Source of the DNA: an uncultured Desulfarculales bacterium | GTDB lineage: Bacteria > Desulfobacterota > Desulfarculia > Desulfarculales > JAHJDS01 | Assembly (NCBI GenBank): GCA_964569795.1 | Contig: CAZMVB010000008.1 | Span: forward strand, 12,303 to 76,302 | Direction: 5' to 3' | Length of the DNA: 64,000 bases | Shown: positions 3,834 to 59,934 of the stretch, piece after piece | Numbering within the stretch: position 1 is the first letter of the stretch | Layout of the letters: the number at the start of each line of letters is the position of its first letter | Notes under the pieces: model-generated | Told to the model about the DNA's origin: nothing | Databases searched by the model: none | What the model saw: the letters and a program-made list of their open reading frames with translations, nothing else | Program-made: the position numbers and the translations under genes

Positions 3834-5213
3834 ATGAACGACCGATCAGAACGTGACTCCCTGGGCGAGGTCCAGGTCCCGGCCGAGGCCTATTACGGGG
3901 CCAACACCCGGCGGGCGATGGACAATTTCCAGATCAGCGGCCTGACCCTGCCCGACTCGCTGATCATCGCCCTGGCGAAAATCAAGCGACAGGCGGCCCG
4001 GGTCAACCTGTCCCTGGGTCGCCTGCAAAAGGCCGCGGCTGAGGCCATTGAAACAGCGGCGACCGAGATCATCGACGGCCGCCACGCGGACCAGTTCCCG
4101 CTGGACGTGTTTCAGACCGGCTCGGGCACCTCGACCAACATGAACCTGAACGAGGTAATCGCCGGCCGGGCCAACGAACTGTTGACCGGACGGCGCGGCG
4201 GCAAGGAGCCGGTCCATCCCAACGACCACGTCAACCTGGGCCAGTCCACCAACGACGTCTTTCCCTCGGCCATTCACCTGGCCGCCCTGACCCAGCTCCG
4301 GGCGGACTTGCTTCCCGCCCTGGTCTCCCTGCAGGCCAGCCTCGAGAACAAGGCCGCCGAATTTGGCGGGATAGTCAAAACTGGGCGGACCCACCTCCAG
4401 GACGCCCTGCCCGTCACACTGGGCCGGGAGTTCGGGGGTTACGCCCGGCAGGTGGAAAAGGGACGGCTCCGCCTGGAGGCCGTCCAGACCGACCTGGCCG
4501 AACTCCCCCTGGGCGGCACGGCCGTGGGTACCGGCGCCGGCGCGCCGCCCGGGTTCGCCCCCCGGGTCATCGCCGCCCTGGCCGAGGAGACCGGGCTGCC
4601 CCTGGTCGAGGCCCGCGATCACTTCGAGGCCAACTCGGCCCGGGACGCGGCGGTCATGGCCGGCGGGGCCCTCAAAAGCGTGGCCGTCAGCCTGGCCAAA
4701 ATCGCCGGCGACCTGCGGTGGCTGGCCTCGGGGCCGCGGTTCGGCCTGGGCGAGATCACCCTGCCCGAGCTCCAGCCCGGCTCGTCGATCATGCCCGGCA
4801 AGATCAACCCGGTGGTCCCTGAAGTGGTCGTCCAGGTCGCGGCCCAGGTCATCGGTCTTGACGCGGCCCTGACCCTGGGCGGCCTGGGCGGCCGGTTCGA
4901 GCTGAACACGATGATGCCCCTGATCGCCCACGACCTGCTGACCTCGATCTCCTGGCTGGCCCGGGCCGTCCGGCTTTTGGACGAAAAATGCGTCCAGGGC
5001 ATAGAGGTCCGCCCGGAACTGGCCGCCTCGGGAATCGAGCGCAACCTGATGCTGGCTACCTTTCTGGTCCCGGCCATCGGCTATGACCGGGCGGCCGAGG
5101 TGGCCCGGGAGGCCGCCCGCTCGGGCCGGACCATCGCCCAGGCGGCGGTGGACCTGGGCCTCATGGACGCCGATCAGGTCAGGGAACTCCTCGACCGGGC
5201 CGTCCCCAAGTAA
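3834..5213 (+). CDS. fumC: Class II fumarate hydratase (fumarase/aspartase superfamily)
   Basis: QTGSGTSTNMN, HPNDHVN, GRTHLQDA, GSSIMPGKINP signatures. Confidence 0.85.
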   Translation: MNDRSERDSLGEVQVPAEAYYGANTRRAMDNFQISGLTLPDSLIIALAKIKRQAARVNLSLGRLQKAAAEAIETAATEIIDGRHADQFPLDVFQTGSGTSTNMNLNEVIAGRANELLTGRRGGKEPVHPNDHVNLGQSTNDVFPSAIHLAALTQLRADLLPALVSLQASLENKAAEFGGIVKTGRTHLQDALPVTLGREFGGYARQVEKGRLRLEAVQTDLAELPLGGTAVGTGAGAPPGFAPRVIAALAEETGLPLVEARDHFEANSARDAAVMAGGALKSVAVSLAKIAGDLRWLASGPRFGLGEITLPELQPGSSIMPGKINPVVPEVVVQVAAQVIGLDAALTLGGLGGRFELNTMMPLIAHDLLTSISWLARAVRLLDEKCVQGIEVRPELAASGIERNLMLATFLVPAIGYDRAAEVAREAARSGRTIAQAAVDLGLMDADQVRELLDRAVPK

Positions 5214-38541: not shown

Positions 38542-39359
38542 TCGACGCCGGTACCCAAGTGTACGCCGTGATCGGCCGGCCCCTGGACCACACCCTCAGC
38601 CCGGCGGTCCACAACGCCGCCTTTCAGGCAACCGGCCTCAACGCGGTGTATCTGGCCCTGCCCACCGATGATCCGGCCGGGGCCCTGGCCGGGGCACGGG
38701 CCCTGGGCCTGAAGGGCCTGTCCATCACCATCCCCCACAAGGAGGCGGCCCTGGCCGGGGTGGATGAGGTCGAGGCCGAGGCCCGAACCCTGGGGGCGAT
38801 CAACACCGTCGTCATTCGCGACGGTTTTCTGAAGGGGAGCAACACCGACGCCCCGGCCATCGTCGCCTGCCTGGAAAAGGCCGGCCCGGTGTCCGGACGG
38901 CGGGCCCTGATCCTGGGGACCGGCGGCGCGGCCCGGGCGGCGGCCTTTGGTCTGTCCCAGGCCGGGGCCGAGGTGATCGTCGCCGGACGGCGGGCCGACC
39001 GGGTGGCCGGGCTGGCCCGGGACCTGGGGGTCCGAGGAATATCCTGGGCCGAGATCGGCACGGAAAATCCCGAACTGGTGATCAACGCCACGCCGGTCGG
39101 GATGTGGCCTCAGGCCGACGAAACGCCGCTGGACGTGTCCGGGCTGGACCCCGGGACCGTGGTCCTGGACATGGTTTACAACCCGCTGCAAACCCGGTTG
39201 TTGACCCTGGCCCAGGATCGGGGCCTGACCACCGTCTCGGGCCTGGAGGTCTTCCTGGATCAGGCGGCCCGGCAGTTCGAGCTGTGGACCGGTACCTCGG
39301 CCCCGGTGCAGGTGATGCGGGAGGCGGCCCTGACTGCTCTTCGCGGAGGATTAAGATAA
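38538..39359 (+). CDS. aroE: Shikimate dehydrogenase
   Basis: HTLSPAVHN, SITIPHKE, GAINT, NTD, GTGGAARA, NATPVGM, DMVYNP. Confidence 0.95.
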   Translation: MIDAGTQVYAVIGRPLDHTLSPAVHNAAFQATGLNAVYLALPTDDPAGALAGARALGLKGLSITIPHKEAALAGVDEVEAEARTLGAINTVVIRDGFLKGSNTDAPAIVACLEKAGPVSGRRALILGTGGAARAAAFGLSQAGAEVIVAGRRADRVAGLARDLGVRGISWAEIGTENPELVINATPVGMWPQADETPLDVSGLDPGTVVLDMVYNPLQTRLLTLAQDRGLTTVSGLEVFLDQAARQFELWTGTSAPVQVMREAALTALRGGLR

Positions 39360-40423
39360 TGGCGGGCAACACCTTTGGTCAGATTTGGCGCGTGACCACG
39401 TTCGGCGAGTCCCACGGCCCGGCCATCGGGGCCGTGATCGACGGCTGCCCGGCCGGTCTGCCCCTGGACGAGGCGACCGTCCAGGCCGAACTGGACCGCC
39501 GTCGGCCCGGCCAGGGGGCCTTTGCCAGTCCCCGCCGCGAGCCGGACCAGGTCCGCCTCCTGTCCGGGGTCTTCGAGGGAAAGACCCTGGGCACGCCCAT
39601 CGGCCTGGTGATCGACAACCGCGACGTCCGGTCCGCGGACTACGACGATCTGCGCGACAAGTTCCGGCCCGGTCAGGCCGACGTGACCTATTACCAGAAA
39701 TACGGGCTTCGGGATCATCGGGGCGGCGGCCGGGCCTCGGCCCGGGAGACCGCGGCCCGGGTGGCGGCCGGGGCCGTGGCCCAGGTCCTGCTCGATCAGG
39801 ACCAGATCGAGGTTTTGGGCGGGACCAGGGCCATCGGCGGCGTGGTCGCCCCGGACACGGACTGGGCCGCGGTGGACGACAATGACCTGCTCTGCCTCGA
39901 TCCCGACGCCGTCCCGGCCCTCATGGCCCGCCTGGCCGAGGTCAAGGCCGCCGGCGACTCGGTGGGCGGCCTGGTCGAGGTTCTGGTCCGCAACTGTCCG
40001 CCGGGCCTGGGCGAGCCGGTCTTTGACAAGCTCGAGGCCGACTTGGCCAAGGCCCTGATGTCCATCGGGGCGGTCAAGGGCGTCGAGATCGGGGCCGGTT
40101 TCAACGCGGCCGACCTGCTCGGCTCGGAGAACAACGATCTTTTGACCCCGACCGGATACACCTCGAACCAGGCCGGCGGCGTGCTGGGCGGCATCTCGAC
40201 CGGCCAGGACATCTTTCTCCGGGTGGCAATCAAGCCGATCCCGTCCATCGAACGGGAGCAGCGGACCATGGATCAGATGGGACGGCCGACGACCATCCGG
40301 ATCACCGGCCGCCACGACGTCTGCGCCCTGCCCCGGATCGTACCCGTGGTCCAGGCCATGGTCCGCCTGGTCCTGGCCGATCATCTGCTCCGCAAGCGCC
40401 TGGCCCGTCATGATTCGGCTTGA
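39359..40423 (+). CDS. aroC: Chorismate synthase
   Basis: TFGESHG, RPGQAD, GGRASARET, GGISTG, GRHD. Confidence 0.97.
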   Translation: MAGNTFGQIWRVTTFGESHGPAIGAVIDGCPAGLPLDEATVQAELDRRRPGQGAFASPRREPDQVRLLSGVFEGKTLGTPIGLVIDNRDVRSADYDDLRDKFRPGQADVTYYQKYGLRDHRGGGRASARETAARVAAGAVAQVLLDQDQIEVLGGTRAIGGVVAPDTDWAAVDDNDLLCLDPDAVPALMARLAEVKAAGDSVGGLVEVLVRNCPPGLGEPVFDKLEADLAKALMSIGAVKGVEIGAGFNAADLLGSENNDLLTPTGYTSNQAGGVLGGISTGQDIFLRVAIKPIPSIEREQRTMDQMGRPTTIRITGRHDVCALPRIVPVVQAMVRLVLADHLLRKRLARHDSA

Positions 40424-40470
40424 ACCGATCACCGGACCGGTTTACCCTTGAATATGGCCGGACGGAAGCC

Positions 40471-41118
40471 ATGAAGCCGGGCAAGACGTTCAACAATCTG
40501 GCCAAGTCCAAGCAGAACCGCATCATCACCGCGGCCGTGGGCGAGTTCAGCCGCCAGGGTTACGCCGGGGCCCGGGTCAGCGCCATCGCCGACAAGGTGG
40601 GCATCGCCAAGGGCTCCCTGTTCCAGTACTTCGGCGACAAGAAGCGGTTGTTTCTGTTTTTGTTCGACCGGACCGTGGACCGGGTCAAGGACCACCTCCG
40701 GGCCGTCCGCGATGCGACCCAGGATCAAAACGTCTTCGACCGGATCGAACGGATCCTCAAAAGCGGCGTCGAGTTCGTCGGCCGCCACCCCCACCTGTAC
40801 ACCCTGTATCTGAAGCTGACCTTCGAGAGCGGCACACCCCTCAAACAGGAGATGATCCGGCAGGTGCGGGCCGACAGCCTGGAGTTTTTGCGGGAGATCC
40901 TGCTGACCGGACAGGAGCGCGGCGAGCTGAGGGCCGACGTGGACCTGGATCAGGCCGCCTTCATCCTGGACGCGCTCTTCGAGCGTTTCCTGCAGGCCCT
41001 GTCCCAGGCCCACCTGGACGCCGGCACCGGGCTGTACCGGGCCGACGAGGCCGTGCTCGAGCCCAAGATCCGGGGCCTGATCGACGTGATGCGCTTCGGA
41101 CTGGGACCTTCGCCATGA
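40471..41118 (+). CDS. TetR/AcrR family regulator
   Basis: EFSRQGY..IA...GIAKGSLFQYFGDK helix-turn-helix. Confidence 0.9.
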   Translation: MKPGKTFNNLAKSKQNRIITAAVGEFSRQGYAGARVSAIADKVGIAKGSLFQYFGDKKRLFLFLFDRTVDRVKDHLRAVRDATQDQNVFDRIERILKSGVEFVGRHPHLYTLYLKLTFESGTPLKQEMIRQVRADSLEFLREILLTGQERGELRADVDLDQAAFILDALFERFLQALSQAHLDAGTGLYRADEAVLEPKIRGLIDVMRFGLGPSP

Positions 41119-41870
41119 GCCCGCCCGAACACGACCGCCTGATCCTGGTGGCCACCAGGGCCGAGGCCGCGTCACTCCTCGAGGCAATCACCGGGGGGCG
41201 GGAGTCCCTGGCCGGCCGGCGGCCCCTGGTCACGGGCGTAATCGGTGAGCGGGTGGTCCGCCTCCTGATCACCGGCCCCGGCCTGGTCAACACCGCCCAG
41301 GCCCTGACCGCCGCCGTCGAGCGCCGACTGCCGGGCCTGATCGTCCAGACCGGCTGCGGCGGCTGGTTCGACTCGTCCGGCCTCGGGCTCGGCGATCTGG
41401 CCCTGGCCTTCGAGGAGATCGACGCCCACCTCGGGTTGGAGTCCGCCACCCCCGGCGACCCGCCGGACCGATTGCCCTGGCCGGTCCTCCGCACCGCCCA
41501 GGGCGACCTTTTCCGCCTGTATCCCCTTGACGCCGAACTGGTCGGCGCCGCCCGGGACATGCTGCGGCCGGCCTTCGAGCCCGAGGGCGTCACCGTCGCC
41601 ACCGGCCCCTTCCTGACCGTGGCCACCATCACCACCACCGACCGCACCGCCGCCCTCCACGAAAAGAGATGGCGGCCGGTCATGGAAAACATGGAGGGCG
41701 CGGCCGCGGCCCACGTGGCCGCCTGCTACGGCATCCCCTTCCTCGAGGTCCGCGGGGCCAGCAACCGGGTCGCCCGGCGGGACCCGGACCAGTGGGACAT
41801 CCCCCTGGCCGCGGCCCGGGCCGCCGAGGCGGTGGTAAATTTAATAACCGGAGGACTGGGTGAAGCATAG
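41115..41870 (+). CDS. mqnB: Futalosine hydrolase
   Basis: TGPGLVN, FLTVAT.T, ENMEGAAAAH, EVRGASN; mqn context. Confidence 0.85.
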   Translation: MSPPEHDRLILVATRAEAASLLEAITGGRESLAGRRPLVTGVIGERVVRLLITGPGLVNTAQALTAAVERRLPGLIVQTGCGGWFDSSGLGLGDLALAFEEIDAHLGLESATPGDPPDRLPWPVLRTAQGDLFRLYPLDAELVGAARDMLRPAFEPEGVTVATGPFLTVATITTTDRTAALHEKRWRPVMENMEGAAAAHVAACYGIPFLEVRGASNRVARRDPDQWDIPLAAARAAEAVVNLITGGLGEA

Positions 41871-41897
41871 CCCGGTGGAAAATCGGGGCTGGTGGTC

Positions 41898-42719
41898 ATG
41901 ACTCGAACGTTGTCGCTGGCCTACTCCCCCTGCCCCAACGACACCTTCCTGTTTCACGCCCTGGCCCATGGCCTGGTCCGGGTGCCGGGCGTCGAGTTTA
42001 CCATTGACCTGCATGACGTCGAGGTCCTGAACCAGGCCGCCCTGGCCGGACAATACGACGTGACCAAGCTGTCCTTTGCCGCCCTGGACCAGGTTCTTGG
42101 TGACTACGCCCTGCTGCGCTCGGGCGCGGCCCTGGGCCGGGGCTGCGGGCCCCTGGTCGTGGCCCGGCCCGGATTTGATCCGTCCCGTCTGGCGAACGTC
42201 AAGGTGGCCGTGCCCGGACTCATGACCACGGCCCGCCGCCTGCTTGAACTTTTTTTACAAAAAAAACCTGACGTCGTGCCCCTCGTCTTCGACCAGATCA
42301 TGCCCGCCGTGGCGGCCGGTAAATTCGAATTCGGGGTGATCATTCACGAGGGCCGGTTTACTTTTGCGGATCACGGCCTGGTCCAGGTGGTCGATCTGGG
42401 CGAGTGGTGGGAAACCGAAAAAGGGCTACCCATCCCCCTGGGCGGCATCGTCGTCCGGCGCGCCCTGGGGCCTGACCTGGGCCGGCAGATCGAACGGGCG
42501 ATCCGGGACAGCGTCCTTTTCGCCCGGCGTAATCCCGAGGCCTCGGCCGATTACGTGGCCGCCCACGCCCAGGAGATGGACCCCCAGGTCACGCGGCAGC
42601 ACATCGAGCTGTACGTCAATGACTTCACCGTCAATCTGGGCGACGAGGGCGAGCGGGCGGTCCGGGCCTTCCTCGGTCGGGACGGGGCGATCCCGGCTCA
42701 ACCTGCCCTGTTCGTTTGA
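41898..42719 (+). CDS. mqnD: 1,4-dihydroxy-6-naphthoate synthase
   Basis: YSPCPNDTF, DVEVLN, GRGCGP, IIHEGRFT, PIPLG, HIELYVN. Confidence 0.92.
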   Translation: MTRTLSLAYSPCPNDTFLFHALAHGLVRVPGVEFTIDLHDVEVLNQAALAGQYDVTKLSFAALDQVLGDYALLRSGAALGRGCGPLVVARPGFDPSRLANVKVAVPGLMTTARRLLELFLQKKPDVVPLVFDQIMPAVAAGKFEFGVIIHEGRFTFADHGLVQVVDLGEWWETEKGLPIPLGGIVVRRALGPDLGRQIERAIRDSVLFARRNPEASADYVAAHAQEMDPQVTRQHIELYVNDFTVNLGDEGERAVRAFLGRDGAIPAQPALFV

Positions 42720-42870
42720 TCCATTTCCATCCAACATCCAATGGCCCTTCAATCAGCCTGACTCGTCAAGCGAGGCCGTGTCGCGGCGCAGGCGGCCCAA
42801 ATTAAGTTGTAGCCACAGGGCCACAAAATGGTATAGATCGATTAGTCTGCCAACGCGAAGGAGGATCAAT

Positions 42871-43233
42871 ATGAAGCGGGTTGTGTTGCTGGTGGTGATC
42901 GCCGCCCTGGTAATGATGTTTGGTATGACGCCCCTGCCCCAGGCCGCGGCCAGGCCGTTGTCTTCGAACCCGACCTACGGGCCGGCCCCCTCGGTGGCCA
43001 TCGGGGGCGGTCCGGTGATGGTGGCCTATTGTCGGCTGGTCAGAAAGGTTTATCCTTGTTACCGGAATCAGCAGCGTTGCTGGCTGGCCAACAAGTGCAT
43101 TCCCTGGCGGATGTGCCGGCTGACCCCCCGGGGACGAGTGTGCACCACCACCCGAAAGTGCTGGAAGGTACGCCGGTGCAAGTTGGTCAGGGTCAGGGCG
43201 ACGTGCTGGCGGACCTATCGAGTGTGCAATTAG
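42871..43233 (+). CDS. Secreted cationic 10-Cys mini-protein (120 aa)
   Basis: AAGGAGG RBS; signal peptide; 10 Cys and 20 Lys/Arg in the last 68 aa; no Asp/Glu. Confidence 0.8.
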   Translation: MKRVVLLVVIAALVMMFGMTPLPQAAARPLSSNPTYGPAPSVAIGGGPVMVAYCRLVRKVYPCYRNQQRCWLANKCIPWRMCRLTPRGRVCTTTRKCWKVRRCKLVRVRATCWRTYRVCN

Positions 43234-43260
43234 GCTTTCGCGCAGGTCAAGCCGAGAAGA

Positions 43261-43283
43261 CCCCGGCCGGAAGCCGGCCGGGG
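43261..43283. terminator. Hairpin between convergent genes
   Basis: CCCCGGCCGG-AAG-CCGGCCGGGG; no clear T-tract. Confidence 0.5.
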
Positions 43284-43333
43284 CTGGATCATGACCGATT
43301 TCAAGCTGCCGCCCTATTGACGGGCGCCCGGGA

Positions 43334-44185
43334 TCAGGCCCACCACTTGTCCGCGAGCACCGCCGCCAGCAGGGCCAGGCTGACGTAGCTGTTGACCGTG
43401 AAAAAGGCGGCGTTGAGGCGGCGGAGGTCCTCGGCCGAGACCAGCCGGTGCTCGACCAGCAACAGCCCCCCGACCACGGCCAGACCCAGGTAATAGGGCC
43501 AACCCAGGCCGGACATGATCCCGGCCATCAGGAACAAGACCCAGGCCCCGGCGTGAAACAGGGACGACACGATGAGCGCCGTCCGGGGGCCCAGGCGGGC
43601 CGGGATTGAATGCAGTCCGGCCCGGCAATCGAAGTCGATGTCCTGGCAGGCGTAGATCACGTCAAAACCGGCCACCCAGCAGATCACCCCCCCGGCAAAG
43701 ACCAGGATCGGCCCGGAAACCTCCCCGGCCACGGCCAGATATCCCCCCAGGGGCGCCAGGGACAGGGATGTTCCTAGAAAGACGTGGCTCAGCCAGGTGA
43801 AGCGCTTGGTCCAGGAATAACCGAGCACCACGAACAGGGCCACCGGCGACAACACCAGACAAATCAAGTTGAGGTTGGCCGCGGCCACGAAAAACAAGGC
43901 GATCGAGGCCGCCAGAAACAGGATCACCTGGCCGCGGTGCAGCTCGCCCCGGGGCAGGGCCCGGCCCCGGGTGCGTGGGTTTTGGGCGTCCAGGCCATGA
44001 TCCACCAGGCGGTTGCAGGCCATGGCCGCGCTCCGGGCCCCGACCATGGCCGCCAAAATCCACAGGGACACACCCCAGCCCGGCCAGTCGCCCGCGGCCC
44101 AAAAGGCCCCGACATAGGCCAGTGGCAGGGCGAACACGGTGTGCTCGAACTTGATCATCTCCAGGATTTTCAAGACGACCCGCAT
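43334..44185 (-). CDS. mqnP: UbiA-family prenyltransferase of the futalosine pathway
   Basis: IKFEHTVFALP, NRLVD...D..NPRT, YSWTKRFT, GFDVIYACQD. Confidence 0.88.
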   Translation of the reverse strand: MRVVLKILEMIKFEHTVFALPLAYVGAFWAAGDWPGWGVSLWILAAMVGARSAAMACNRLVDHGLDAQNPRTRGRALPRGELHRGQVILFLAASIALFFVAAANLNLICLVLSPVALFVVLGYSWTKRFTWLSHVFLGTSLSLAPLGGYLAVAGEVSGPILVFAGGVICWVAGFDVIYACQDIDFDCRAGLHSIPARLGPRTALIVSSLFHAGAWVLFLMAGIMSGLGWPYYLGLAVVGGLLLVEHRLVSAEDLRRLNAAFFTVNSYVSLALLAAVLADKWWA

Positions 44186-45636
44186 CAGGCCAGACCCAGG
44201 CGCTTCCAGATTCGATCGATCCTGGTCTTGACGGCCGGGGCCATCTCGATCACCCCCGGCCAGTCGCGGGGGAAGCCCTCCTCGGGCCACTTGCGGGTGC
44301 AGTCCAGGCCCATCTTGCCGCCAAAGGCCGGCCGGTCCGAGGCGTGATCCAGGACGTCCAGCGGCCCCCGGGTCATCAGCGCGTCCCGCATTGGGTCCAC
44401 GTTGGCCCCCAGCCGCCAGATGACCTCGGACAGATCCTGGACGTCCACCTCGGCGTCAAAGACCCAGATCATCTTGCAGAACATCATCTGGCCCATGCCC
44501 CACAGGGCGTGCATGATTTTTGAGGCGTGGCCCGGGTAGCGCTTGTCAATGGACACCAGGCACAGGTTGTGGAACACCCCCTCGACCGGCAGGTTCATAT
44601 CAATTATCTCGGGGAGCTGCTTCTTGATCAGGGGCAAGAAGAGCCGCTCGGTGACCTTGCCCAGGGCGGCGTCCTCCATGGGGGGGCGGCCGACGATGGT
44701 GGTGTGATAGATCGGCGCGGCCCGGCGGGTCAGGGCGGTGACGTGGAACACGGGGTACTCGTCGGCCGGCGAGTAATAGCCGGTGTGATCGCCAAAGGGG
44801 CCCTCGATCCGGCGTTCGTTGGGCTCGACGTAGCCCTCGAGGACGAGCTGGGCGTTGGCCGGGACCTCGAGATCGACGCTGACGCACTTGACCAGCTCGA
44901 CCGGTTTCTTGCGCAGATAGCCGGCCAGGAGGTACTCGTCCAGGTCCTCGGGCAGGGGCGCGGTGGCGGCGTAGGTCACCGCCGGATCGGGTCCGAGGGC
45001 CACGGCCGCCTCGAGCCGTTCGCCCCGGGCCTCGGCCACCCGGAAGTGCTGGGCCCCGCCCTTGTGGGCGTGCCAGTGCATGCCGGTCTCTTTGGGCCCG
45101 AAGACCTGGAGCCGATACATGCCCACGTTCCGGCCGCCGGTCTCGGGGTGACGGGTCGTCACCAGGGGCAGGGTGATGAACGGCCCGCCGTCTCCGGGCC
45201 AGCAGGTCAGCACCGGCCAGGCGGTCAGGTCGATCTCGTCCCCGGTCAGGACCACCTCCTGACAGGGGGCCTTGGTCACCCGCTTGGGAAAGACGTCGGC
45301 CAGTCGCTTGAGCCTTGGCAGGAGTTTTATTTTCTCCAGCAGGTTCTGGGGCCGGGCCTCCTCGACCAGAAACATGATATCCGCGGCAATGGCGTCCAGG
45401 TCGTCCACCTCCAGGGCCAGCCTGGCCCGGGCAGCGGTGCCAAAGGCGTTGATCAGCACCGGCCAGCCCGAGGGCGACTTGACGCTTTCGAACAGCAGGG
45501 CCGGACCGCCGGCCTTGGTCACCCGGTCGGCGATCTCGGTGATCTCCAGGATCGGACTGACGGGCTCCCTTATCCGGCGCAGCTCGCCGGCCGCCTCGAG
45601 GCGGTCGATGAATTCATTCAGATCACGAAAGGCCAT
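44185..45636 (-). CDS. mqnL: UbiD-family menaquinone biosynthesis decarboxylase
   Basis: EITEIADRV, WPGDGGPFITLP, EGPFGDHTGYY, KRYPGHA. Confidence 0.88.
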   Translation of the reverse strand: MAFRDLNEFIDRLEAAGELRRIREPVSPILEITEIADRVTKAGGPALLFESVKSPSGWPVLINAFGTAARARLALEVDDLDAIAADIMFLVEEARPQNLLEKIKLLPRLKRLADVFPKRVTKAPCQEVVLTGDEIDLTAWPVLTCWPGDGGPFITLPLVTTRHPETGGRNVGMYRLQVFGPKETGMHWHAHKGGAQHFRVAEARGERLEAAVALGPDPAVTYAATAPLPEDLDEYLLAGYLRKKPVELVKCVSVDLEVPANAQLVLEGYVEPNERRIEGPFGDHTGYYSPADEYPVFHVTALTRRAAPIYHTTIVGRPPMEDAALGKVTERLFLPLIKKQLPEIIDMNLPVEGVFHNLCLVSIDKRYPGHASKIMHALWGMGQMMFCKMIWVFDAEVDVQDLSEVIWRLGANVDPMRDALMTRGPLDVLDHASDRPAFGGKMGLDCTRKWPEEGFPRDWPGVIEMAPAVKTRIDRIWKRLGLA

Positions 45637-45651
45637 TATTGTTCCTTTCTT

Positions 45652-46839
45652 TCAGGCCGAGGGCGACGGCCGCCCGGCCACCCAGGTCAGGCCGCCGGCG
45701 CCCCCGTTGCAGACCAGGGCCTCGATCAGGCCCCGGGGCGAGGCGGCCTGGATCGGGACGTATAGGGCCGCCGCCCGCCGGCCCAGGTGGAGCGAGCCCC
45801 GAAAGTGGCCCTGACGGAGGGCCCGGGCGGCGTAAAGTGTCGCCCCGGCCAGGACGTAAGCCGGGTCCAGGCCGGGATAGGTCTTTACGGCAAAGGCCAT
45901 CTCGTCCCAGAGGGAAAGCGTATCCACGGAGGCCAACGAGTCGGTCCCCAGGGCCGGTTCGAGCCCGGCGGCGATCATCCCCGGCCAGTCGGGCGTTTGG
46001 CCGTGAAGCCGGTGATTGCTCCGGGGGCAGAGACACACCGCCGCACCCCGCCGCCGCAACACCTCCCAGTCGGCCGGGCCGGTCTGAAGCAGGTGCACGG
46101 CCAGGGTGAATTCATCCAGGAGGCCCAGGGAATCGAGGTAGGCCACCGGACCTTCCGCCGGCAGACCCCATTCATCAAAACTTATACCACGACTGATCAA
46201 GAAATCAGCCCAGGGACCCCGGCCGGAGAGCAAAAATTCGACTTCAGCCATTGACTCGGCCAGATGGATGGCCCACGGCCGGCCGGCCCGCCTGGTCTCG
46301 GCCTTGAGGGCGACCAGCAGGTCGGGATGGGTGGTGTGCGGGGCGTGTCCGGCCAGGGAAAGGACCAGGTCTCCTTCGGCCGGTTCGTCCGGGTCGGGCA
46401 CTGGACAGGGCGAACCCAGGTACTCGCTCCACCACACCCCGCCCAGACCCGCCTGCCGGACCAGGTCGGCGGTCCAGCCCAGGGTCGAGACCTCGCCCCC
46501 GGCCGCGACCCCGGCCTCGATCAGGGCCCGGGCGGCCCGGCGGGCGGCGGCCACCAGGTCCTTTTTCGGGGTCGCCTCGCGGAGGGCGATCACCTCCCCC
46601 ACCCAGGCCAGAAAGTCGCCCGCGGCCCGCACCCGGCCGTGCAGGGCGCTAAGCTCTAAATGGGTGTGGGCGTTGATCAGGCCCGGAACCAGCGCCCCCG
46701 GCCCGTGGTCCACGGATTTTTCCCGGCGAGTCGCGGTCCAGAACCCGGTCTCGATCACCCGGCCGCCCTCGACCCGGAAAAAACCGTTGGGCAGCACGGT
46801 CCAGGGATCGACCACCACCCAGGCCGCCCGGTGGATCAC
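45652..46839 (-). CDS. Amidohydrolase, probable aminodeoxyfutalosine deaminase
   Basis: PGLINAHTHLELS, HAPH, HLAES, LGTDSLAS; embedded in the mqn operon. Confidence 0.75.
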   Translation of the reverse strand: MIHRAAWVVVDPWTVLPNGFFRVEGGRVIETGFWTATRREKSVDHGPGALVPGLINAHTHLELSALHGRVRAAGDFLAWVGEVIALREATPKKDLVAAARRAARALIEAGVAAGGEVSTLGWTADLVRQAGLGGVWWSEYLGSPCPVPDPDEPAEGDLVLSLAGHAPHTTHPDLLVALKAETRRAGRPWAIHLAESMAEVEFLLSGRGPWADFLISRGISFDEWGLPAEGPVAYLDSLGLLDEFTLAVHLLQTGPADWEVLRRRGAAVCLCPRSNHRLHGQTPDWPGMIAAGLEPALGTDSLASVDTLSLWDEMAFAVKTYPGLDPAYVLAGATLYAARALRQGHFRGSLHLGRRAAALYVPIQAASPRGLIEALVCNGGAGGLTWVAGRPSPSA

Positions 46840-47927
46840 GGCCCGGCCTCGGCAGAAGTTGACCGGACCGGCGGCTCGTCCAGCAAGTTATAAAAACAGT
46901 CGCGCCGCCGGGCCTCAAAACCGGCCGTCTCGATGAGGTGGATCAGGTCCGCCTCGGACAGACGGAACCTGACACCGGCCGCGGCCACGACGTTTTCCTC
47001 GATCATGGTGCTGCCCAGGTCATTGGCCCCGAAGGCCAGGGCCACCTGGGCGATCTTCGAGCCCTGGGTGACCCAGCTGGCCTGGATATTCGGGACGTTG
47101 TCCAGGACCAGGCGGCTGACGGCTAGGGTCCGCAGGTAATCCACGGCCGTGGCCTTGGCCCGCGGCAGCCGGGTGTTCTCCGGCTGAAAGGGCCAGGGGA
47201 TGAAGGCGGTGAACCCGCCGGTCTCGTCCTGCAGGTCACGGATTCTCATCAGATGCTCGATCCGGTGGGCGTCGGTCTCGACGTGGCCGAACATCATCGT
47301 CGCCGTGGTCTTGAGGCTTAAGGAGTGGGCGACACGCATTACGTCGAGCCACTGATCGGCGGTGCACTTGCCAGGCGAGATCTGACGGCGGACCTCGTCC
47401 ACCAGGATCTCGGCCCCGCCGCCCGGGATGGACCCCAGGCCGGCCTCGATCAGGACCTGGAGCACGGCCTGGATCGACGTCCCCTCGCGTCCGGCCAGCC
47501 AGACGATCTCCGGGGGCGAAAAACCGTGGACGTGGACCCCGTGACGGGCGGTGATCCGTCTCAGGAGTTCCTGGAAATAATTCAGGCCCAGCTCGGGATT
47601 GAGCCCCCCCTGTAATAAAACCTGCCGACCGCCCAGGGCCACGGTCTCCTCGATCTTGCGGTCCAGTTCATCCCAGGACAGGACGTAGCCGTCCGGATCG
47701 CCGGGTTTCTTGTAAAAGGCGCAGAACAGGCAGCCGGACCCGCAGACGTTGGTGTAGTTGATGTTGCGGTCCACCACGTAGGTGACCATCGGCCGGGGAT
47801 GGAGCCGCCAGCGGACCTCGTCGGCCGCGACGGCCAGTTCCAGGATGTCGGCCCGGCGCAGAAGGTCCAGGGCCTCGCCTGCGCCCAGGCGCTTGCCGGC
47901 CGGACGGTCCGGGCCGGTCGCCGGCAT
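46836..47927 (-). CDS. mqnC: Cyclic dehypoxanthinyl futalosine synthase (radical SAM)
   Basis: DRNINYTNVC..GCLFCAF, LLQGG, PGGGAEIL, FIPWPFQP, QASWVTQG. Confidence 0.92.
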   Translation of the reverse strand: MPATGPDRPAGKRLGAGEALDLLRRADILELAVAADEVRWRLHPRPMVTYVVDRNINYTNVCGSGCLFCAFYKKPGDPDGYVLSWDELDRKIEETVALGGRQVLLQGGLNPELGLNYFQELLRRITARHGVHVHGFSPPEIVWLAGREGTSIQAVLQVLIEAGLGSIPGGGAEILVDEVRRQISPGKCTADQWLDVMRVAHSLSLKTTATMMFGHVETDAHRIEHLMRIRDLQDETGGFTAFIPWPFQPENTRLPRAKATAVDYLRTLAVSRLVLDNVPNIQASWVTQGSKIAQVALAFGANDLGSTMIEENVVAAAGVRFRLSEADLIHLIETAGFEARRRDCFYNLLDEPPVRSTSAEAGP

Positions 47928-49021
47928 CAGGCCGCCTCCCGGACGTCGATGGGCCGGTAAAAGGCGTCGCGCTCGACGGGCTCGAAGCCGGCCCGGCGGA
48001 TCATCTCCCGCAGTTTTTCCCGGGGCAATCCCCGGGCGCTCTGGGCCCCGGCCATGTGGCTGATCTTTTCCTCGATGATCGTCCCGTCCAGGTCGTCGGC
48101 CCCGAAGGACAGGGCCACCTGGGCCAGGGGCTCGCCCAGCATGACCCAGTAGGCCTTGATGTGATCGAAGTTGTCCAGCAGCAGCCGGGCCAGGGCGGTG
48201 ACCTTCAGGTCGTCGGCCGCGGTCGGGCCGCGCCGGGAGGCCAGTCGGGTGTTGGCCGGGTGAAAGCTCAGGGGAATGAAGGCCGAGAAGCCGTGGGTCT
48301 CGTCCTGGAGTTCGCGGAGCATCAGGAGATGATCGACCCGCTCCGCATCGGTCTCCAGATGACCGTAGAGCATGGTGGCGTTGGTGGTCAGACCGGCCCG
48401 GTGGGCGGCCCGCATCACCTCCAGCCAGCGCCAGTGGCTGATCTTGCGGGGGAACAGCTTGACCCTGACCCGGGGTGAAAAGACCTCGGCCCCGCCGCCG
48501 GGCATCATCTCCAGGCCGGCCTCCTTCAGGGCGGCCAGGGTCCCCTCCAGTCCCAGTCCGGATATCCGGGCCAGGTGGTCGATCTCCACGGCGGTGAAGG
48601 CCTTGATGGCCGCCCCGGGCCGCAGCCGCTTCAGGAGGCGGATCAGGTCGAGGTAATAGTCAAAGGGCAGAGCCGGGTTCACGCCGCCGACGACGTGGTA
48701 TTCGGTGATCGGTTCGTCCAGGCGGTCCGTCAGGCGGCGTTCGATCTCGTCCAGGCCCAGGGTGAAGGCCCCGTCCCGGCCCTCGTCCCGGGCAAAGGCG
48801 CAGAAGGCGCATTTGTTCTGGCAGACGTTGGTGTAGTTGAGGTGCTGGTTATAGACGAAGAAGACCCGGCGGCCGTGCCGCTGGCGGCGCACGGTATCGG
48901 CCAGGCGGCCGACGGCGACCAGGTCAATGGCGTTGAGGATGGCCAGGCCGTCGTTGCGGTCGAGTCTCTGGTGGTTGTTGACCTTTTCGGCCGCGGTTTG
49001 CAACCCGCTGTTTTTTGTCAA
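47927..49021 (-). CDS. mqnE: Aminofutalosine synthase (radical SAM)
   Basis: NYTNVCQNKCAFCAF, HVVGG, KAFTAVE, TMLYGH, HIKAYW. Confidence 0.92.
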   Translation of the reverse strand: MTKNSGLQTAAEKVNNHQRLDRNDGLAILNAIDLVAVGRLADTVRRQRHGRRVFFVYNQHLNYTNVCQNKCAFCAFARDEGRDGAFTLGLDEIERRLTDRLDEPITEYHVVGGVNPALPFDYYLDLIRLLKRLRPGAAIKAFTAVEIDHLARISGLGLEGTLAALKEAGLEMMPGGGAEVFSPRVRVKLFPRKISHWRWLEVMRAAHRAGLTTNATMLYGHLETDAERVDHLLMLRELQDETHGFSAFIPLSFHPANTRLASRRGPTAADDLKVTALARLLLDNFDHIKAYWVMLGEPLAQVALSFGADDLDGTIIEEKISHMAGAQSARGLPREKLREMIRRAGFEPVERDAFYRPIDVREAA

Positions 49022-49182
49022 GTTTATGACCCTCCGCTCATTTATTATTAGTTGGTATTATTATATTTTTTTGCATTCATAATATGACCCACCGGTCATT
49101 ATATGCCTCATTCCGAGCGGGAACGCAAGTGTTTTGTCCATCGGCCCGGGCCCGGGACGGACGGACGTCGGCAATTTTTTTC

Positions 49183-56002: not shown

Positions 56003-59000
56003 TCACATACCTCTTCTGTACTGACCCCCCACCTCAAACAACGCCCGGGTGATCTGGCCCAGGCTGCAGACCCGGACCGTGTCCATGAGTTCGGCGAAGA
56101 TGTTCCTGCCGGACAGGGCGGTCTGCTTGAGGCGGTCCAGGGCGGCCGGGGCCTCGGCCTCGTGCCGGTGATGGAACTCGCGCAGCCGGGTCAGTTGGGA
56201 CTGTTTTTCTTCCTCGGTGGCCCGGGCCAGCTCGACAAAGCACTGGGCCTCCTCGTAGTCCTGGTTGGGATTGCGGAAGGTGTTGACCCCGATGATCGGC
56301 AGGTCGCCGGTGTGCTTCAGGATCTCGTAGTAGATGGATTCCTCCTGGATCTTGCCGCGCTGGTAGCCGGTCTCCATGGCCCCCAGGACCCCTCCCCGCT
56401 CGGCCAGGCGCTCGAATTCGGACAGGACCGCCTCCTCGACCAGCCGGGTCAGCTCCTCGACGATGAAGCTGCCCTGGTACGGGTTCTCGTTCTTGGCCAG
56501 GCCCCACTCCCGGTTGATGATCAATTGGATGGCCAGGGCCCGGCGGACCGATTCCTCGGTCGGGGTGGTGATGGCCTCGTCAAAGGCGTTGGTGTGCAGG
56601 CTCTGGCAGTTGTCATAGACCGCGCACAGGGCCTGGAGCGTGGTCCGGATGTCGTTGAACTGGATCTCCTGGCTGTGCAGCGACCGGCCCGATGTCTGGA
56701 TGTGATACTTGAGCATCTGGGACCGCGGTCCCCCGCCGTACAGGTCCCGGAGGGCGATGGCCCAGACGCGCCGGGCCACCCGGCCGATGACCGTGTACTC
56801 GGGGTCCATGCCGTTGCTGAAAAAGAAGGACAGGTTCGGGGCGAAAGAGTCGATGGGCATCCCCCTGGACAAATAGTACTCGACATAGGTGAAGCCGTTG
56901 GCCAGGGTGAAGGCCAGCTGGGTGATGGGGTTGGCCCCGGCCTCGGCGATGTGATAGCCCGAGATGGACACCGAATAGAAATTGCGGACGTTTTCGTCGA
57001 TGAAGTACTGCTGGATGTCGCCCATCATTTTCAGGGCGAACTCGACCGAGAACAGGCAGGTGTTCTGTCCCTGATCCTCCTTGAGGATGTCGGCCTGGAC
57101 CGTGCCCCGGACGTTTTCCAGGGCGTAGCTCTTGATTTTCCGGTACTCGTCCGGCTCGGGGTCGCGGTTCTGCTCGGCCTTGAATTTGGCGACCTGCTGG
57201 TCGATGGCCGCGTTGAAGAAGAAGGCCAGCATCATCGGCGCCGGGCCGTTGATGGTCATGGACACCGAGGTGGACGGGGCGCAGAGGTCGAAGCCGTCAT
57301 AGAGGACCTTGGCGTCCTCGTAGGTGCAGACGCTGACGCCCGAGGTGCCGACCTTGCCGTAGATGTCGGGCTGCTCGTCCGGGTCGGTGCCGTAGAGGGT
57401 CACCGAGTCAAAGGCGGTGGACAGGCGCTTGGCCTCGCTGTACTCGGACAGGAGCTTGAAGCGGCGGTTGGTCCGGGCCGGGTCGCCCTCGCCGGCGAAC
57501 ATCCGGGTCGGGTCCTCGCCGGTCCGCTTGAAGGGAAACACCCCGGCGGTGTATGGGAACTGTCCCGGGACGTTCTCCTCGCGCAGCCAGCGGTAGGTCT
57601 CGCCCGGGTCCTCGAAGTCGGGCAGGACCACCTTGGGGATCTTCTGCCGGGCCAGGGACTCGGTGTACAGCGGGACCTTGATCTCCCGGTCCCGGACCCG
57701 ATAGACGAACTCGTCACCCGAGTAGGCCTCCTTGAGGCGCGGCCAGGAGTTGAGCAGGTCAAAGGTGTCGTTGTCCATGGCCTTGCGGGCCGCCTCGACC
57801 TCGGCCTTCAATTTTTCAACGGCCTCGGGGTAACCCTTTTGACTGAATTCCTCGGCCACGGTGTCCAAATGCCAGACCCGGCGGACCACGGCCGCCTGGT
57901 CCCGGGTGCGGCGGTGGTAGGACCGGACGGAATCGGCGATCTCGGCCAGGTACCGGGTCCGCTCGGGCGGGATGATGATCGTCTTGGACGACGAGATCCG
58001 GCCCGTGCCCCGGGGCAGGCGGGACTCGAAGGCGACCTCGGTCCGCTCGGCCAACAGGTCCAGGATGCCGTGGTAGAGGGCGGTCACGCCGTCGTCGTTG
58101 AACTTGGAGGCAATGGTCCCATAGACCGGCATGTCCTCGACGCTCTTGTCCCAGGCGTCCCGGTTGCGCTGGACCTGCTTGCGTACGTCCCGGACCGCGT
58201 CCTCGCCGCCCTTCTTCTCGAACTTGTTGACCGCGATCAGATCGGCGAAGTCGAGCATGTCGATCTTCTCGAGCTGGGAGGCGGCCCCGAACTCGGGCGT
58301 CATGACGTACAGCGAGGCGTCGGCCAGATCGACCACGCCGGTGTCCCCCTGACCGATGCCGGCCGTCTCGACGATGACCAGGTCAAAACCGGCCGCCTGG
58401 GTGACGGCGATGGCGTCGGCCAGGGCGTCGCTCAGTTCGGTGTGGGACTCGCGGGTGGCCAGGGAGCGCATGAACACCCGGGGATTTCCGAGAGAGTTCA
58501 TCCGGATGCGGTCGCCCAGCAGGGCCCCCCCGGTCTTGCGCCGGCTGGGATCGACGCTGAGCACGGCCACGGTCTTTTCCCGGAAATCGTGGAGGAACCT
58601 CAGGATCAGTTCGTCGGTCAACGACGACTTGCCCGCGCCCCCGGTCCCGGTGATCCCCAGGACCGGGACCCGGCGGGACCCGATCTTCTGCTTCATCGCC
58701 GCCCGCAGCGCCGCCAGGTGGCCGTTCTCGGCGGCCTTGGCCATTTCGACCGCGGTGATGATCCGGGCCACCTCGAGCTTGTTCTCGGGCGCCAGGTGCG
58801 CCAGGTCCAGGTCCTCGCGCTCGGTCACGGCCGGGTAGTCGATGCTCTCCACCAGGTGATTGATGATCCCCTGGAGGCCCAGCCTGGCCCCGTCCTCGGG
58901 GGAATAGATCCGGGCCACGCCATAGGCGTGCAGCTCCTTGATCTCATCGGGCACGATCACCCCGCCGCCGCCGCCGAAGACCTTGACGTGGTCCGCGCCC

Positions 59001-59272
59001 CGCTCCCTCAATAGATCGACCAGGTACTTGAAGAACTCCATGTGGCCGCCCTGGTAGCAGCTCACGGCCACGGCCTGGGCGTACTCGCAGACCGCGGCCT
59101 CGACGATCTCGGCCACCGACCGGTTGTGCCCCAGGTGAATAACTTCAACGCCGGTCCCCTGGAGGATCCGGCGCATGATGTTGATCGCCGCGTCGTGTCC
59201 GTCGAACAAGGACGTGGCGGTGACGACGCGGACGTGGTTGGCGGGCCTGTAGGGCGCTACATTGACGGTCAT
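56003..59272 (-). CDS. icmF: Fused isobutyryl-CoA mutase/GTPase
   Basis: FDGHDA B12-binding, GTGGAGKSS GTPase, PTRMFAGEG mutase (Phe specificity residue), HIQTSGRSL. Confidence 0.96.
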
Positions 59273-59934
59273 GATCCTCCCCCGTCTTTTTCAGCGGCGA
59301 AAAGGTCGCCCACGATCAAATGGGTCTGCAGCCGGGTGTAATCCTCGATCGAGTATTTACCGCTCAAAAACCACCGCCGGAAGGTCCACATGTGGCCCAG
59401 GACGGTGATGTTGTGGGCCAGAAGCTCGATGGTCGCCTCGTCCAGGGGCGGCAGGTCGCCGTTTCCGGACAGCCGGGTCAGGACGTCCCTGATCAGGCCG
59501 GTGATCTCCACGTCGTTGTCCAGGACGTTTTTTCGCCACTCGGGCGGCAGGCTCTTGGCCTCCTGGTAGATGAGCAGGATGTGGTCGCTCATCCGATGAC
59601 AGACCGCAAAAAACTCGGCGATGACCGCGGCCAGGGCCTGGCGGCCGCCGGCGGCCCGGGCCACCCCCTCGGCGATGGACTTGGCCATCTCGGCGTGAAT
59701 CGCGTCGCAGACCAGATAAAGCACGTCCTCCTTGGAGGCGACGTATTCGTAGAGCGTGCCGGTCGAAAAACCGGCCGCCCGGGCGATCTGGCGGGTGGTC
59801 GTCTTGTGAAAACCCTGCTTGATGAACAGATGGACCGCGGCGTCGATGATCTGGCGGCGACGCCGGGCCACCAGGTCCTGATCCTTGACCTGGGTCGGGA
59901 CCCTGGTGGTGCGTTCAAGCATGGGATCGGCCAT
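59269..59934 (-). CDS. TetR/AcrR family regulator coupled to icmF
   Basis: [25 protein letters not shown] helix-turn-helix; 4-nt overlap with icmF. Confidence 0.9.

Follow-up and report, generated by a model that had tools for sequence, protein, structure and literature searches.

A gene at positions 42871..43233 on the plus strand of a 64,000-nucleotide stretch of contig CAZMVB010000008.1, from an uncultured Desulfarculales bacterium (the whole stretch analysed, hereafter the window), is real and selectively maintained, and it codes for an exported mini-protein. The 120-residue precursor ends in a 69-residue, strongly cationic domain with ten cysteines, which is predicted to fold as one long two-stranded antiparallel beta-ribbon and, most likely, to be stapled after export by four cross-strand disulfides. 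The fold is simple and its kind, the cationic disulfide-stapled hairpin, is already known; no described family matches it. We tentatively favor a reading, to which we would give somewhat less than an even chance, in which the product would be an exported rigid polycation that binds anionic envelopes in the manner of a beta-hairpin antimicrobial peptide. The evidence throughout is computational, and the family is very small.

The precursor and its family

The reading frame, as taken from the translation, runs from an ATG at 42871 to a TAG stop at 43231-43233, and it has its own ribosome-binding site, as an initial annotation of this DNA had claimed: AGGAGG at 42859..42864 (+), read off the sequence 6 nt 5' of the ATG. 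The GGAGGA of this site is also kept in L001, a locus of the closest relative (L001/L005, from JGI metagenomes), and in L010 (GCA_964619275.1). The GC content at third codon positions (GC3) is host-like, at 0.81 for the small gene compared with 0.80 for mqnA, 0.84 for ubiA and 0.90 for ubiD, all genes of the flanking operons. The first 27 residues (42871..42951, +) form a predicted Sec-type signal peptide, recognized by eye and the -3/-1 rule from MKR, 16 hydrophobic residues and QAAA/RP (the slash marking the cut), with cleavage probably after Ala27; this region has neither a twin-arginine motif nor a lipobox, an equivalent signal-peptide N-terminus is found in all homologues, and AlphaFold2 (AF2) places a helix within it at residues 2-18. 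A Pro/Gly/Ser-rich linker follows (42952..43023, +; residues 28-51), which is poorly conserved, varies in both length and sequence among homologues, and is disordered in the AF2 prediction (predicted local distance difference test, pLDDT, below 50 at residues 20-48). The signal peptide and the Pro/Gly linker of the initial annotation are therefore both recognizable here.

The conserved domain itself occupies 43024..43230 (+; residues 52-120), with predicted strands at 54-85 and 88-119. Its ten cysteines stand at positions 54, 63, 70, 76, 82, 91, 97, 103, 112 and 119, and both their spacing (8-6-5-5-8-5-5-8-6) and the number of basic residues (15 Arg and 5 Lys, 20 in all) were recounted as originally stated. 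The 69-residue core also has 4 Trp and 4 Tyr, a pI of 10.9 and a net charge of about +20; the whole 120-residue protein contains no Asp, no Glu and no His, with 4 Trp and 5 Tyr. The lack of acidic residues, which the initial annotation ascribed to the protein, is true of the window sequence but not of the other five full-length members, which carry one or two acidic residues in the core. The predicted mature protein has about 93 residues, of which the hairpin makes up 66.

Relatives were collected by phmmer-type searches of 5.8 billion clustered proteins and 1.84 billion representatives, followed by a look-up of the returned cluster. The searches returned P0002 (81% identity), P0003 (55%), P0004 (55%) and P0006, and the cluster look-up added P0014; a further match, the 308-residue repetitive protein P0005 (E = 9e-4), was rejected as spurious. 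With the window protein, the full-length family amounts to six distinct sequences, and there is one partial variant, L005. The search for homologues and paralogues that had been proposed for this protein has in this way brought in five further full-length members, including, in P0004 and P0006, two paralogues from a single metagenome-assembled genome (MAG), JAHJDS01, which NCBI labels "Proteobacteria bacterium". The cysteine register, on whose conservation the initial annotation had staked its proposal, is kept throughout: all ten cysteines and their spacing are invariant in 6/6 full-length members, at a whole-protein identity of 47-81% among the four that were aligned. Across four whole-protein sequences 44 columns are invariant, and besides the cysteines P78, W79, P86, G88, W98, W113, Y61 and Y116 are invariant, as are ten Arg/Lys (R55, R58, K59, R69, K75, R95, K96, R101, R114 and R117). 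Core net charge runs from about +11 to +20 across the family (L010 being counted by eye). Two of the loci, L003 and L009, are 99.98% identical, and conservation between them is uninformative. Relative to the outgroups, the window lineage has gained extra Arg (Q65R, Q102R), and its protein is the sole member without an acidic residue.

Where does selection act on this gene? By the Nei–Gojobori method, the ratio of nonsynonymous to synonymous substitution rates (dN/dS) in the core is 0.07-0.40, with dS up to ~1.7, and it is 0.07-0.38 among the three closest sequences; for the signal peptide and linker of the same three sequences it is 1.1-7, on small counts. A low ratio in the core beside one of at least 1.1 in the signal peptide and linker indicates that selection acts specifically on the Cys-rich domain. 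Between the window and L010, the small gene has a dS of 0.32 and a dN/dS of 0.18.

The initial annotation recognized no family for the protein, and the databases agree. Pfam gave no match to it even at E <= 10, the best NCBIfam match was the plantaricin C lantibiotic model at 12.4 bits against a cut-off of 29, and the PDB sequences returned CD59 alone, at E 0.17-1.1; we set aside both the plantaricin C and the CD59 matches as noise from Cys composition. PHROGs and PADLOC had no match to the small protein, IMG/VR had no viral contig carrying the gene, BFVD folds returned nothing, and Rfam found nothing in the window; a phage, defense-system or RNA origin was rejected on these results. Targeted literature searches (disulfide, cystine and cysteine ladders; beta-ribbons and the periplasm; small secreted proteins of Desulfobacterota) found no description of such a bacterial protein.

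A predicted ribbon with a probable ladder of disulfides

From the single sequence, AF2 gave a poor model (mean pLDDT 51), yet the central hairpin, 74-85/88-99, was present. From a 4-sequence alignment (alignment A2; model mbd11bcee0a4f), it predicted one continuous hairpin, E54-85/E88-119, of 32+32 residues, with pLDDT means over 10-residue blocks from residue 51 of 80, 94, 92, 92, 91, 95 and 86 (about 90 over the core), and 4/5 models from the runs with an alignment agree on the hairpin. The single long hairpin that the initial annotation expected from AlphaFold is thus what was predicted. The strands are joined by the turn T85-P86-R87-G88 (43123..43134, +), in which P86 and G88 are invariant, and the ribbon would be about 10 nm long (32 residues at ~3.3 Å each). 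In a Foldseek search of the PDB nothing was significant (best E 6e-3 to 0.05, template-modeling (TM) score ~0.2, identity mostly <=10%); the best alignments over the whole 65-70-residue hairpin were to the stems of aerolysin, lysenin, anthrax protective antigen and CDTb, a likeness that is geometric only.

In the register i+j=173, with its turn at P86-R87, four pairs of cysteines (C54/C119, C70/C103, C76/C97 and C82/C91) are directly opposed; any other register matches at most two Cys pairs. Since the offsets between the four opposed pairs are even, all four fall on one face of the ribbon, at equivalent pairing sites. The remaining two cysteines are two residues out of register, Cys63 standing opposite A/G110 and Cys112 opposite Y61, and their opposite parity puts them on the other face, diagonal to each other. 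Cross-strand disulfides in hairpin peptides sit at non-hydrogen-bonded sites, and sheet geometry would put the four opposed pairs at such sites if the loop is the two-residue P86-R87. The prolines of the strands (P62, P78, and P107 in two paralogues) share parity with the paired cysteines; on this assignment of sites, a strand proline would cost no hydrogen bond in a two-stranded ribbon. Acid-base pairing across the strands, as a check on the register, did not discriminate, with 173 scoring 4/7 and 170 and 175 also scoring 4.

After export, the four opposed pairs most likely form a cross-strand disulfide ladder. In other words, the model points to a four-rung ladder plus a conserved pair, Cys63/Cys112, that it leaves unexplained, and not to the clean, nested five-rung ladder of the initial annotation, in which C2 (Cys63) and C9 (Cys112) were to pair; nor is the spacing symmetric in the sense of a true palindrome, as C63/C112 are off by two about P86-R87. 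When ten cysteines are placed at random, four mirror pairs arise with a frequency of 0.8-2.6%, so the pattern alone is only modestly unusual, and the weight is carried by conservation and the model. An internal direct repeat (CRLVRKVYPC-YRNQQRC / CKLVRVRATC-WRTYRVC) was considered as the source of the 8-6 ... 8-6 spacing and found to be unsupported (permutation p = 0.02-0.43 across members).

What, then, might Cys63 and Cys112 do? They may form a strained diagonal disulfide or an intermolecular bond, or serve as free thiols or as a ligand; a Cys63-Cys112 bond might also arise through two compensating 2-residue bulges, the segment lengths being 9/7 and 7/9. On the face where they lie there are 12-15 hydrophobic residues, of which 4-5 per member are Trp/Tyr (Y61, W79, W98 and Y116 being invariant), and 8-10 cationic residues; the ladder face has 5-7 hydrophobic and 5-10 cationic residues.

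A second mirror ladder is found next door to one family member. The 121-residue gene KJ621_20605 (MBU0517164.1) lies directly 5' of the member at L003/L009 (L003 2964-3328, +, equivalent to L009 1813-2178, -), and its last 80 residues contain 15 cysteines, 14 of which form seven perfect mirror pairs of one parity about an ARIKG turn (0-78, 6-72, 12-66, 16-62, 20-58, 30-48 and 36-42), the single extra Cys having the opposite parity. In 50,000 random Cys placements, seven mirror pairs did not come up once, and the frequency of six was 7e-4. The cationic domain (14 K/R vs 3 D/E) has no sequence similarity to the family studied here (BLASTP E = 0.38), and the protein shows no obvious signal peptide. 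Independently of the family, this gene points to mirror Cys-ladder hairpins as a design that recurs in the lineage; as an unrelated ladder it also hints that homology searches under-detect the architecture, for which Cys-pattern symmetry might serve as a search rule. Within the window itself there are no other Cys-ladder open reading frames, the remaining Cys-rich frames being off-frame artefacts with a GC content at second codon positions of 0.7-0.97.

A lost neighbor and the possible roles of the rod

Downstream of the gene, at 43261..43283, lies a GC-rich hairpin, CCCCGGCCGG-AAG-CCGGCCGGGG, with a 10-bp stem and no U-tract. Its 67-nt context folds at -32.9 kcal/mol (z = -2.76), and a terminator scan did not call it. 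The initial annotation listed it as the downstream hairpin of a monocistronic gene; the stem is indeed present, but as a design feature it does not stand, as the closest relative has a second gene and no hairpin. In L005, an intact 165-residue gene with a signal peptide (L005 418-915) starts 65 bp 3' of the small gene on the same strand, and no hairpin follows the small gene in L001/L005. By BLASTN, window 42884-43283 corresponds to L005 3-402 and window 43276-43600 to L005 871-1195, meaning that ~470 bp of L005 are absent from the window, with an 8-bp overlap or microhomology, GGCCGGGG, at 43276-43283. The stem at 43261-43283 straddles this deletion junction, and the last 14 codons and the stop codon of the neighbor survive there as a remnant, GRGWIMTDFKLPPY, at 43276..43320 (+), with 71% identity to L005 residues 152-165 (tblastn). 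L010 has the same junction, the hairpin (with loop ACG) and the remnant (L010 2941-2994). The hairpin of the window is thus a deletion scar, and the monocistronic layout is a derived state. As the small gene is constrained in the window and L010, both of which lack the neighbor, it is kept independently of the neighbor.

The neighbor belongs to a small family of its own: seven clustered proteins came from the search, and one unclustered copy was read from L007. These proteins have ~165 residues and are secreted, with basic mature forms (pI 9.9-11.7); Pfam gave only sub-threshold hints of NTF2-like domains (DUF4829, DUF4878, SnoaL, MecA_N), and the PDB gave no relative. A homologue is convergent to the small gene in L003/L009 (L003 4303-4848, -; BLASTP against the L005 neighbor, E = 9e-15). 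In L007, which is without the small gene, a tandem pair (4001-4504 and 4690-5199) lies beside rhodanese, MauE/DoxX, thioredoxin-fold and DsbD_N genes, and in L008, again without the small gene, a copy (4001-4507) lies beside genes for carbon monoxide dehydrogenase/acetyl-CoA synthase (CODH/ACS); at L004, where a paralogue of the small gene lies, this neighbor is missing. Linkage between the two genes is weak and not obligatory. An immunity protein or chaperone is an unlikely role for the neighbor, which is deleted in the window and L010, is itself basic, and is found alone at L007 and L008.

Family members occur in four contexts: mqnA/ubiA, as in the window, tRNA-Met, a PAS kinase, and serpin/ankyrin genes. 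In L002, an ENA contig that runs out just behind the stop codon of its member, that member (384-731) lies ~215 bp 3' of a tRNA-Met gene (92-168), a setting with no likeness to that of the window. A role in menaquinone synthesis, which the genes flanking the window copy might bring to mind, was rejected, given that other members adjoin tRNA-Met, PAS kinase or serpin/ankyrin genes; the small protein stands outside the menaquinone pathway of its locus, and it does not need the neighboring secreted gene.

Among known systems, the closest in kind are the beta-hairpin antimicrobial peptides, which are single hairpins, disulfide-cyclized, cationic and strongly Arg-enriched; natural members have 11-25 residues and 1-4 disulfides and are reported from animals and plants only, and a 2026 review counts 25 natural families, or 27 with the synthetic ones (PMC13001179). 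Tachyplesin, polyphemusin, protegrin, arenicin, gomesin, theta-defensin and hepcidin likewise consist of a single hairpin with nested cross-strand disulfides (here predicted), and the class shares with our protein its cationic character, an excess of Arg over Lys, Trp/Tyr/Val between the cysteines, and a precursor with an N-terminal export signal. A single antiparallel strand pair in one hairpin is what AF2 predicts, and the core has 15 R, 5 K and 0 D/E, an Arg bias that a high-GC genome also favors at the level of codons. Unlike these peptides, however, the protein is bacterial, its hairpin spans 66 residues where the class has 11-25, it would have four pairs (perhaps with one more), the sequences are not homologous, both faces are charged with no clear amphipathic split, and the core is under purifying selection. 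The segments CWRTYRVC and LVRVRATC resemble arenicin and tachyplesin in style, a likeness that does not amount to a test.

Other systems share parts of the design. The cross-strand "forbidden" or metastable redox-switch disulfides (Wouters/Haworth, PMC4354306) have the same motif as the four predicted opposed pairs; the known ones, however, are single switches inside larger domains, whereas four or more would be stacked here in a free-standing ribbon. Over the whole hairpin, the only solved structures to align were the stems of beta-pore-forming toxins (aerolysin, lysenin, anthrax protective antigen, CDTb); those stems alternate strictly between polar and apolar residues, lack a cystine ladder and belong to large proteins, whereas here K/R lie on both faces of a stand-alone 120-residue product and the Foldseek matches have E >= 6e-3. 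Sec-dependent or defensin-like bacteriocins such as laterosporulin are likewise small, cationic, disulfide-rich, ribosomally made and exported bacterial proteins; they adopt compact multi-strand or CS-alpha-beta folds, are usually Gram-positive, and have linked immunity or export genes. Neither the compact fold nor such linked genes are seen here, there being no linked immunity or transporter gene in any of the four contexts. The Cys-cross-linked ribosomally synthesized and post-translationally modified peptides (sactipeptides, ranthipeptides, SCIFF) do not match either: our protein has a Sec signal and no leader, and there is no maturase at the other loci; the nearest radical-SAM gene in the window (47927-49057), 4.7 kb off, is MqnC-type (CofH_C domain) and belongs to menaquinone synthesis. 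Tenebrio antifreeze beta-helices and granulin have a regular C-x5-C periodicity and a stacked disulfide column along a rod, and they are not polycationic. The C-x5-C periodicity and the stacked disulfides (predicted here) are shared with them, but our protein has no Pfam match at E <= 10, no CC doublets and no 12-residue coils, and its model is a two-stranded ribbon, neither a solenoid nor a hairpin stack.

How might such a protein work? On the reading that we tentatively favor, Sec would export the precursor and the signal would be cut after Ala27, leaving a floppy 24-residue Pro/Gly/Ser tether and a 66-residue two-stranded antiparallel beta-ribbon. Oxidation after export would then produce the four-rung cross-strand disulfide ladder, which would supply rigidity and protease resistance. 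The resulting rod (+20 in the core and about +11 to +20 in the family, with Arg >> Lys and invariant Trp/Tyr) would act outside the cytoplasm by sticking to polyanionic surfaces, most likely the lipopolysaccharide (LPS) or anionic-lipid envelopes of other cells, as an oversized bacterial analogue of the tachyplesin/arenicin/hepcidin-type peptides. A number of observations weigh against this proposal. In the window protein the charges fall 10/10 on the two faces, which leaves the ribbon without a clean amphipathic division. The core evolves under purifying, not diversifying, selection and both of its faces are conserved, which one would expect of a specific partner or of assembly sooner than of unspecific attack on membranes. 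Genes for immunity, export or maturation are not linked to the small gene in the contexts examined. NCBI labels the relatives Proteobacteria/Pseudomonadota, the host is probably diderm, and in a diderm a Sec signal alone reaches the periplasm only. Additionally, the CODH/ACS genes in relatives suggest an anaerobe, in whose habitat exposed disulfides may not stay oxidized, and cross-strand disulfides are described as strained and readily reduced (PMC4354306). The AF2 hairpin itself rests on 4 sequences only, and its predicted TM score is 0.32.

The strongest competitor holds that the rod, as a rigid +11 to +20 spacer or glue and no weapon, would have a structural task in the envelope or matrix of its own producer, where it would bind and cross-bridge anionic polymers, its proposed partners being peptidoglycan, LPS or phospholipid head groups, extracellular DNA, acidic exopolysaccharide or polyphosphate. 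This is unlikely, though with an appreciable chance of being right: purifying selection covers both faces and keeps many Arg/Lys invariant, charge is evenly spread along and around the rod, immunity and export genes are not linked, the gene sits in the core chromosome amid housekeeping genes, and a Sec signal without an outer-membrane export signal fits the periplasm. An envelope component would, however, be expected to be neither so rare and patchy (six full-length sequences among the billions searched) nor so variable in genomic context, and there is no anchor here, that is, no lipobox and no peptidoglycan- or outer-membrane-binding domain recognizable by Pfam or NCBIfam. Might the hairpins instead be units of an assembly? 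Edge-to-edge or face-to-face packing into a covalent dimer, filament, sheet or barrel, with intermolecular disulfides through Cys63/Cys112, would explain why these two cysteines are invariant yet unable to pair directly in register 173, and it would bury the 12-15 hydrophobic residues of their face; the only structural analogues of such length are oligomeric stems (aerolysin, lysenin, anthrax protective antigen, CDTb), and the 7-rung KJ621_20605 protein likewise carries a single additional Cys whose parity is opposite. We nevertheless regard it as improbable, as the Foldseek matches are not significant (E >= 6e-3, TM ~0.2), the strict polar/apolar alternation of pore stems is missing, cations lie on each face, and a charge of +20 on every subunit works against self-assembly if no polyanion is there.

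Slightly more doubtful still is a role in thiol/disulfide or sulfur/metal chemistry, with the protein as a redox-switchable element or a carrier of electrons, sulfane sulfur or metal in the periplasm of an anaerobe, its cationic surface drawing anionic species such as polysulfide. Directly opposed cross-strand disulfides are described as strained, metastable, cognate substrates of thioredoxin-like proteins (PMC4354306), the relatives are probably anaerobes, as they carry CODH/ACS, and one locus of the neighbor family adjoins rhodanese, MauE/DoxX, thioredoxin-fold and DsbD_N genes; that context, however, is the neighbor family's, at a locus without the small gene, and the small protein lacks CxxC and CxxCH motifs as well as His/Asp/Glu ligands, with no redox partner linked to its gene, leaving a purely circumstantial case. 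A Sec-dependent bacteriocin with the 165-residue secreted neighbor as its immunity or helper protein would account for homologous secreted neighbors in two contexts (same strand in L005, convergent in L003/L009; E = 9e-15) and for the remnant in the window. We consider this very improbable: the window and L010 have lost the neighbor and kept an intact, constrained small gene (dN/dS 0.18 between them), and keeping a toxin without its immunity is unexpected; at pI 9.9-11.7 the neighbor is strongly basic and so no charge neutralizer; and its family stands alone at L007 and L008, just as the L004 paralogue stands without it. More generally, an intact and constrained small gene in two diverged genomes without the neighbor argues against a classical toxin–immunity layout. 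Finally, the adjacent deletion, which marks an evolutionarily unstable spot, and the tiny family might be taken as signs of a chance open reading frame or a decaying leftover between operons. That explanation has a negligible probability and is effectively refuted by a core dN/dS of 0.07-0.40 at dS up to ~1.7, ten cysteines invariant in six sequences, a conserved ribosome-binding site and upstream block, a GC3 of 0.81 and the presence of the gene in four unrelated contexts.

A broader and quite speculative proposal, which we rate as a long shot, is that "cystine-ladder beta-ribbon rods" would constitute a new class of bacterial extracytoplasmic proteins: ~10-nm polycationic rods made redox-switchable by their stacked, metastable cross-strand disulfides, with the 4(+1)-rung family and the 7-rung neighbor, unrelated in sequence, side by side in one MAG. 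The conserved odd-parity Cys would either join rods covalently, as dimers or filaments, or bond with each other. If it is true, the rods would be a new kind of scaffold for the envelope or matrix, or else bacteria would have yielded their first natural antimicrobial of the beta-hairpin type. The natural beta-hairpin peptides stapled by disulfides form a very small class that is prized in pharmacology, and a bacterial, genetically encoded, Sec-exportable hairpin, three-fold longer and with 4-5 staples, would, if confirmed, carry the class into another domain of life and another range of sizes. Such a hairpin would also provide a very simple rigid polycationic scaffold and a clean test of how far cross-strand disulfides alone can stabilize a two-stranded ribbon.

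The surrounding locus and the upstream region

The small gene sits between two convergent menaquinone operons of the futalosine route (window 39104-49057), a placement that the initial annotation had rightly seen as the junction of two convergent operons. On one side is an mqnA-type gene (41892..42719, +; PF02621, 2.8e-75), the last of a plus-strand operon composed of aroC (chorismate synthase), a TetR regulator, a PNP_UDP_1 gene (MqnB-like, of futalosine-hydrolase type) and mqnA. On the other is a gene for a UbiA-family prenyltransferase (43334..44290, -; PF01040, 2.2e-56) at the 3' end of the minus-strand operon, with ubiD (PF01977) and an amidohydrolase gene (Amidohydro_1) 5' of ubiA on the same strand and the MqnC-type radical-SAM gene further on. 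Synteny with mqnA is kept in L001 and L010, and L001/L005 share the mqnA ... ubiA order. The core chromosome around the gene also has recA, alaS, fusA, fabH and aroD.

The intergenic spacer 5' of the small gene has a GC content of 53%, compared with 66% for the window. It contains a tentative candidate promoter (42807..42837, +), with a -35-like TTGTAG at 42807-42812 and an extended -10-like TGGTATAGA at 42829-42837 separated by a 19-nt spacer, which a sigma-70 scan did not call. An upstream block, ATGGTATAG(A/G)TCGATT, plus GTTG further 5', is conserved across the window, L001 and L010. An 8-bp inverted repeat (TTGTAGCC...GGCCACAA) at window 42807-42826 overlaps the -35-like element; the same repeat was reported by a scan as a terminator-like site on the minus strand, and it is not kept in L001 or L010.

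Two further features of the window deserve mention. The TetR regulator is embedded within the plus-strand menaquinone operon, and at 56003-59290 (-) there is a 1095-residue fusion of B12-binding, MeaB GTPase and methylmalonyl-CoA-mutase domains, an IcmF-like architecture.

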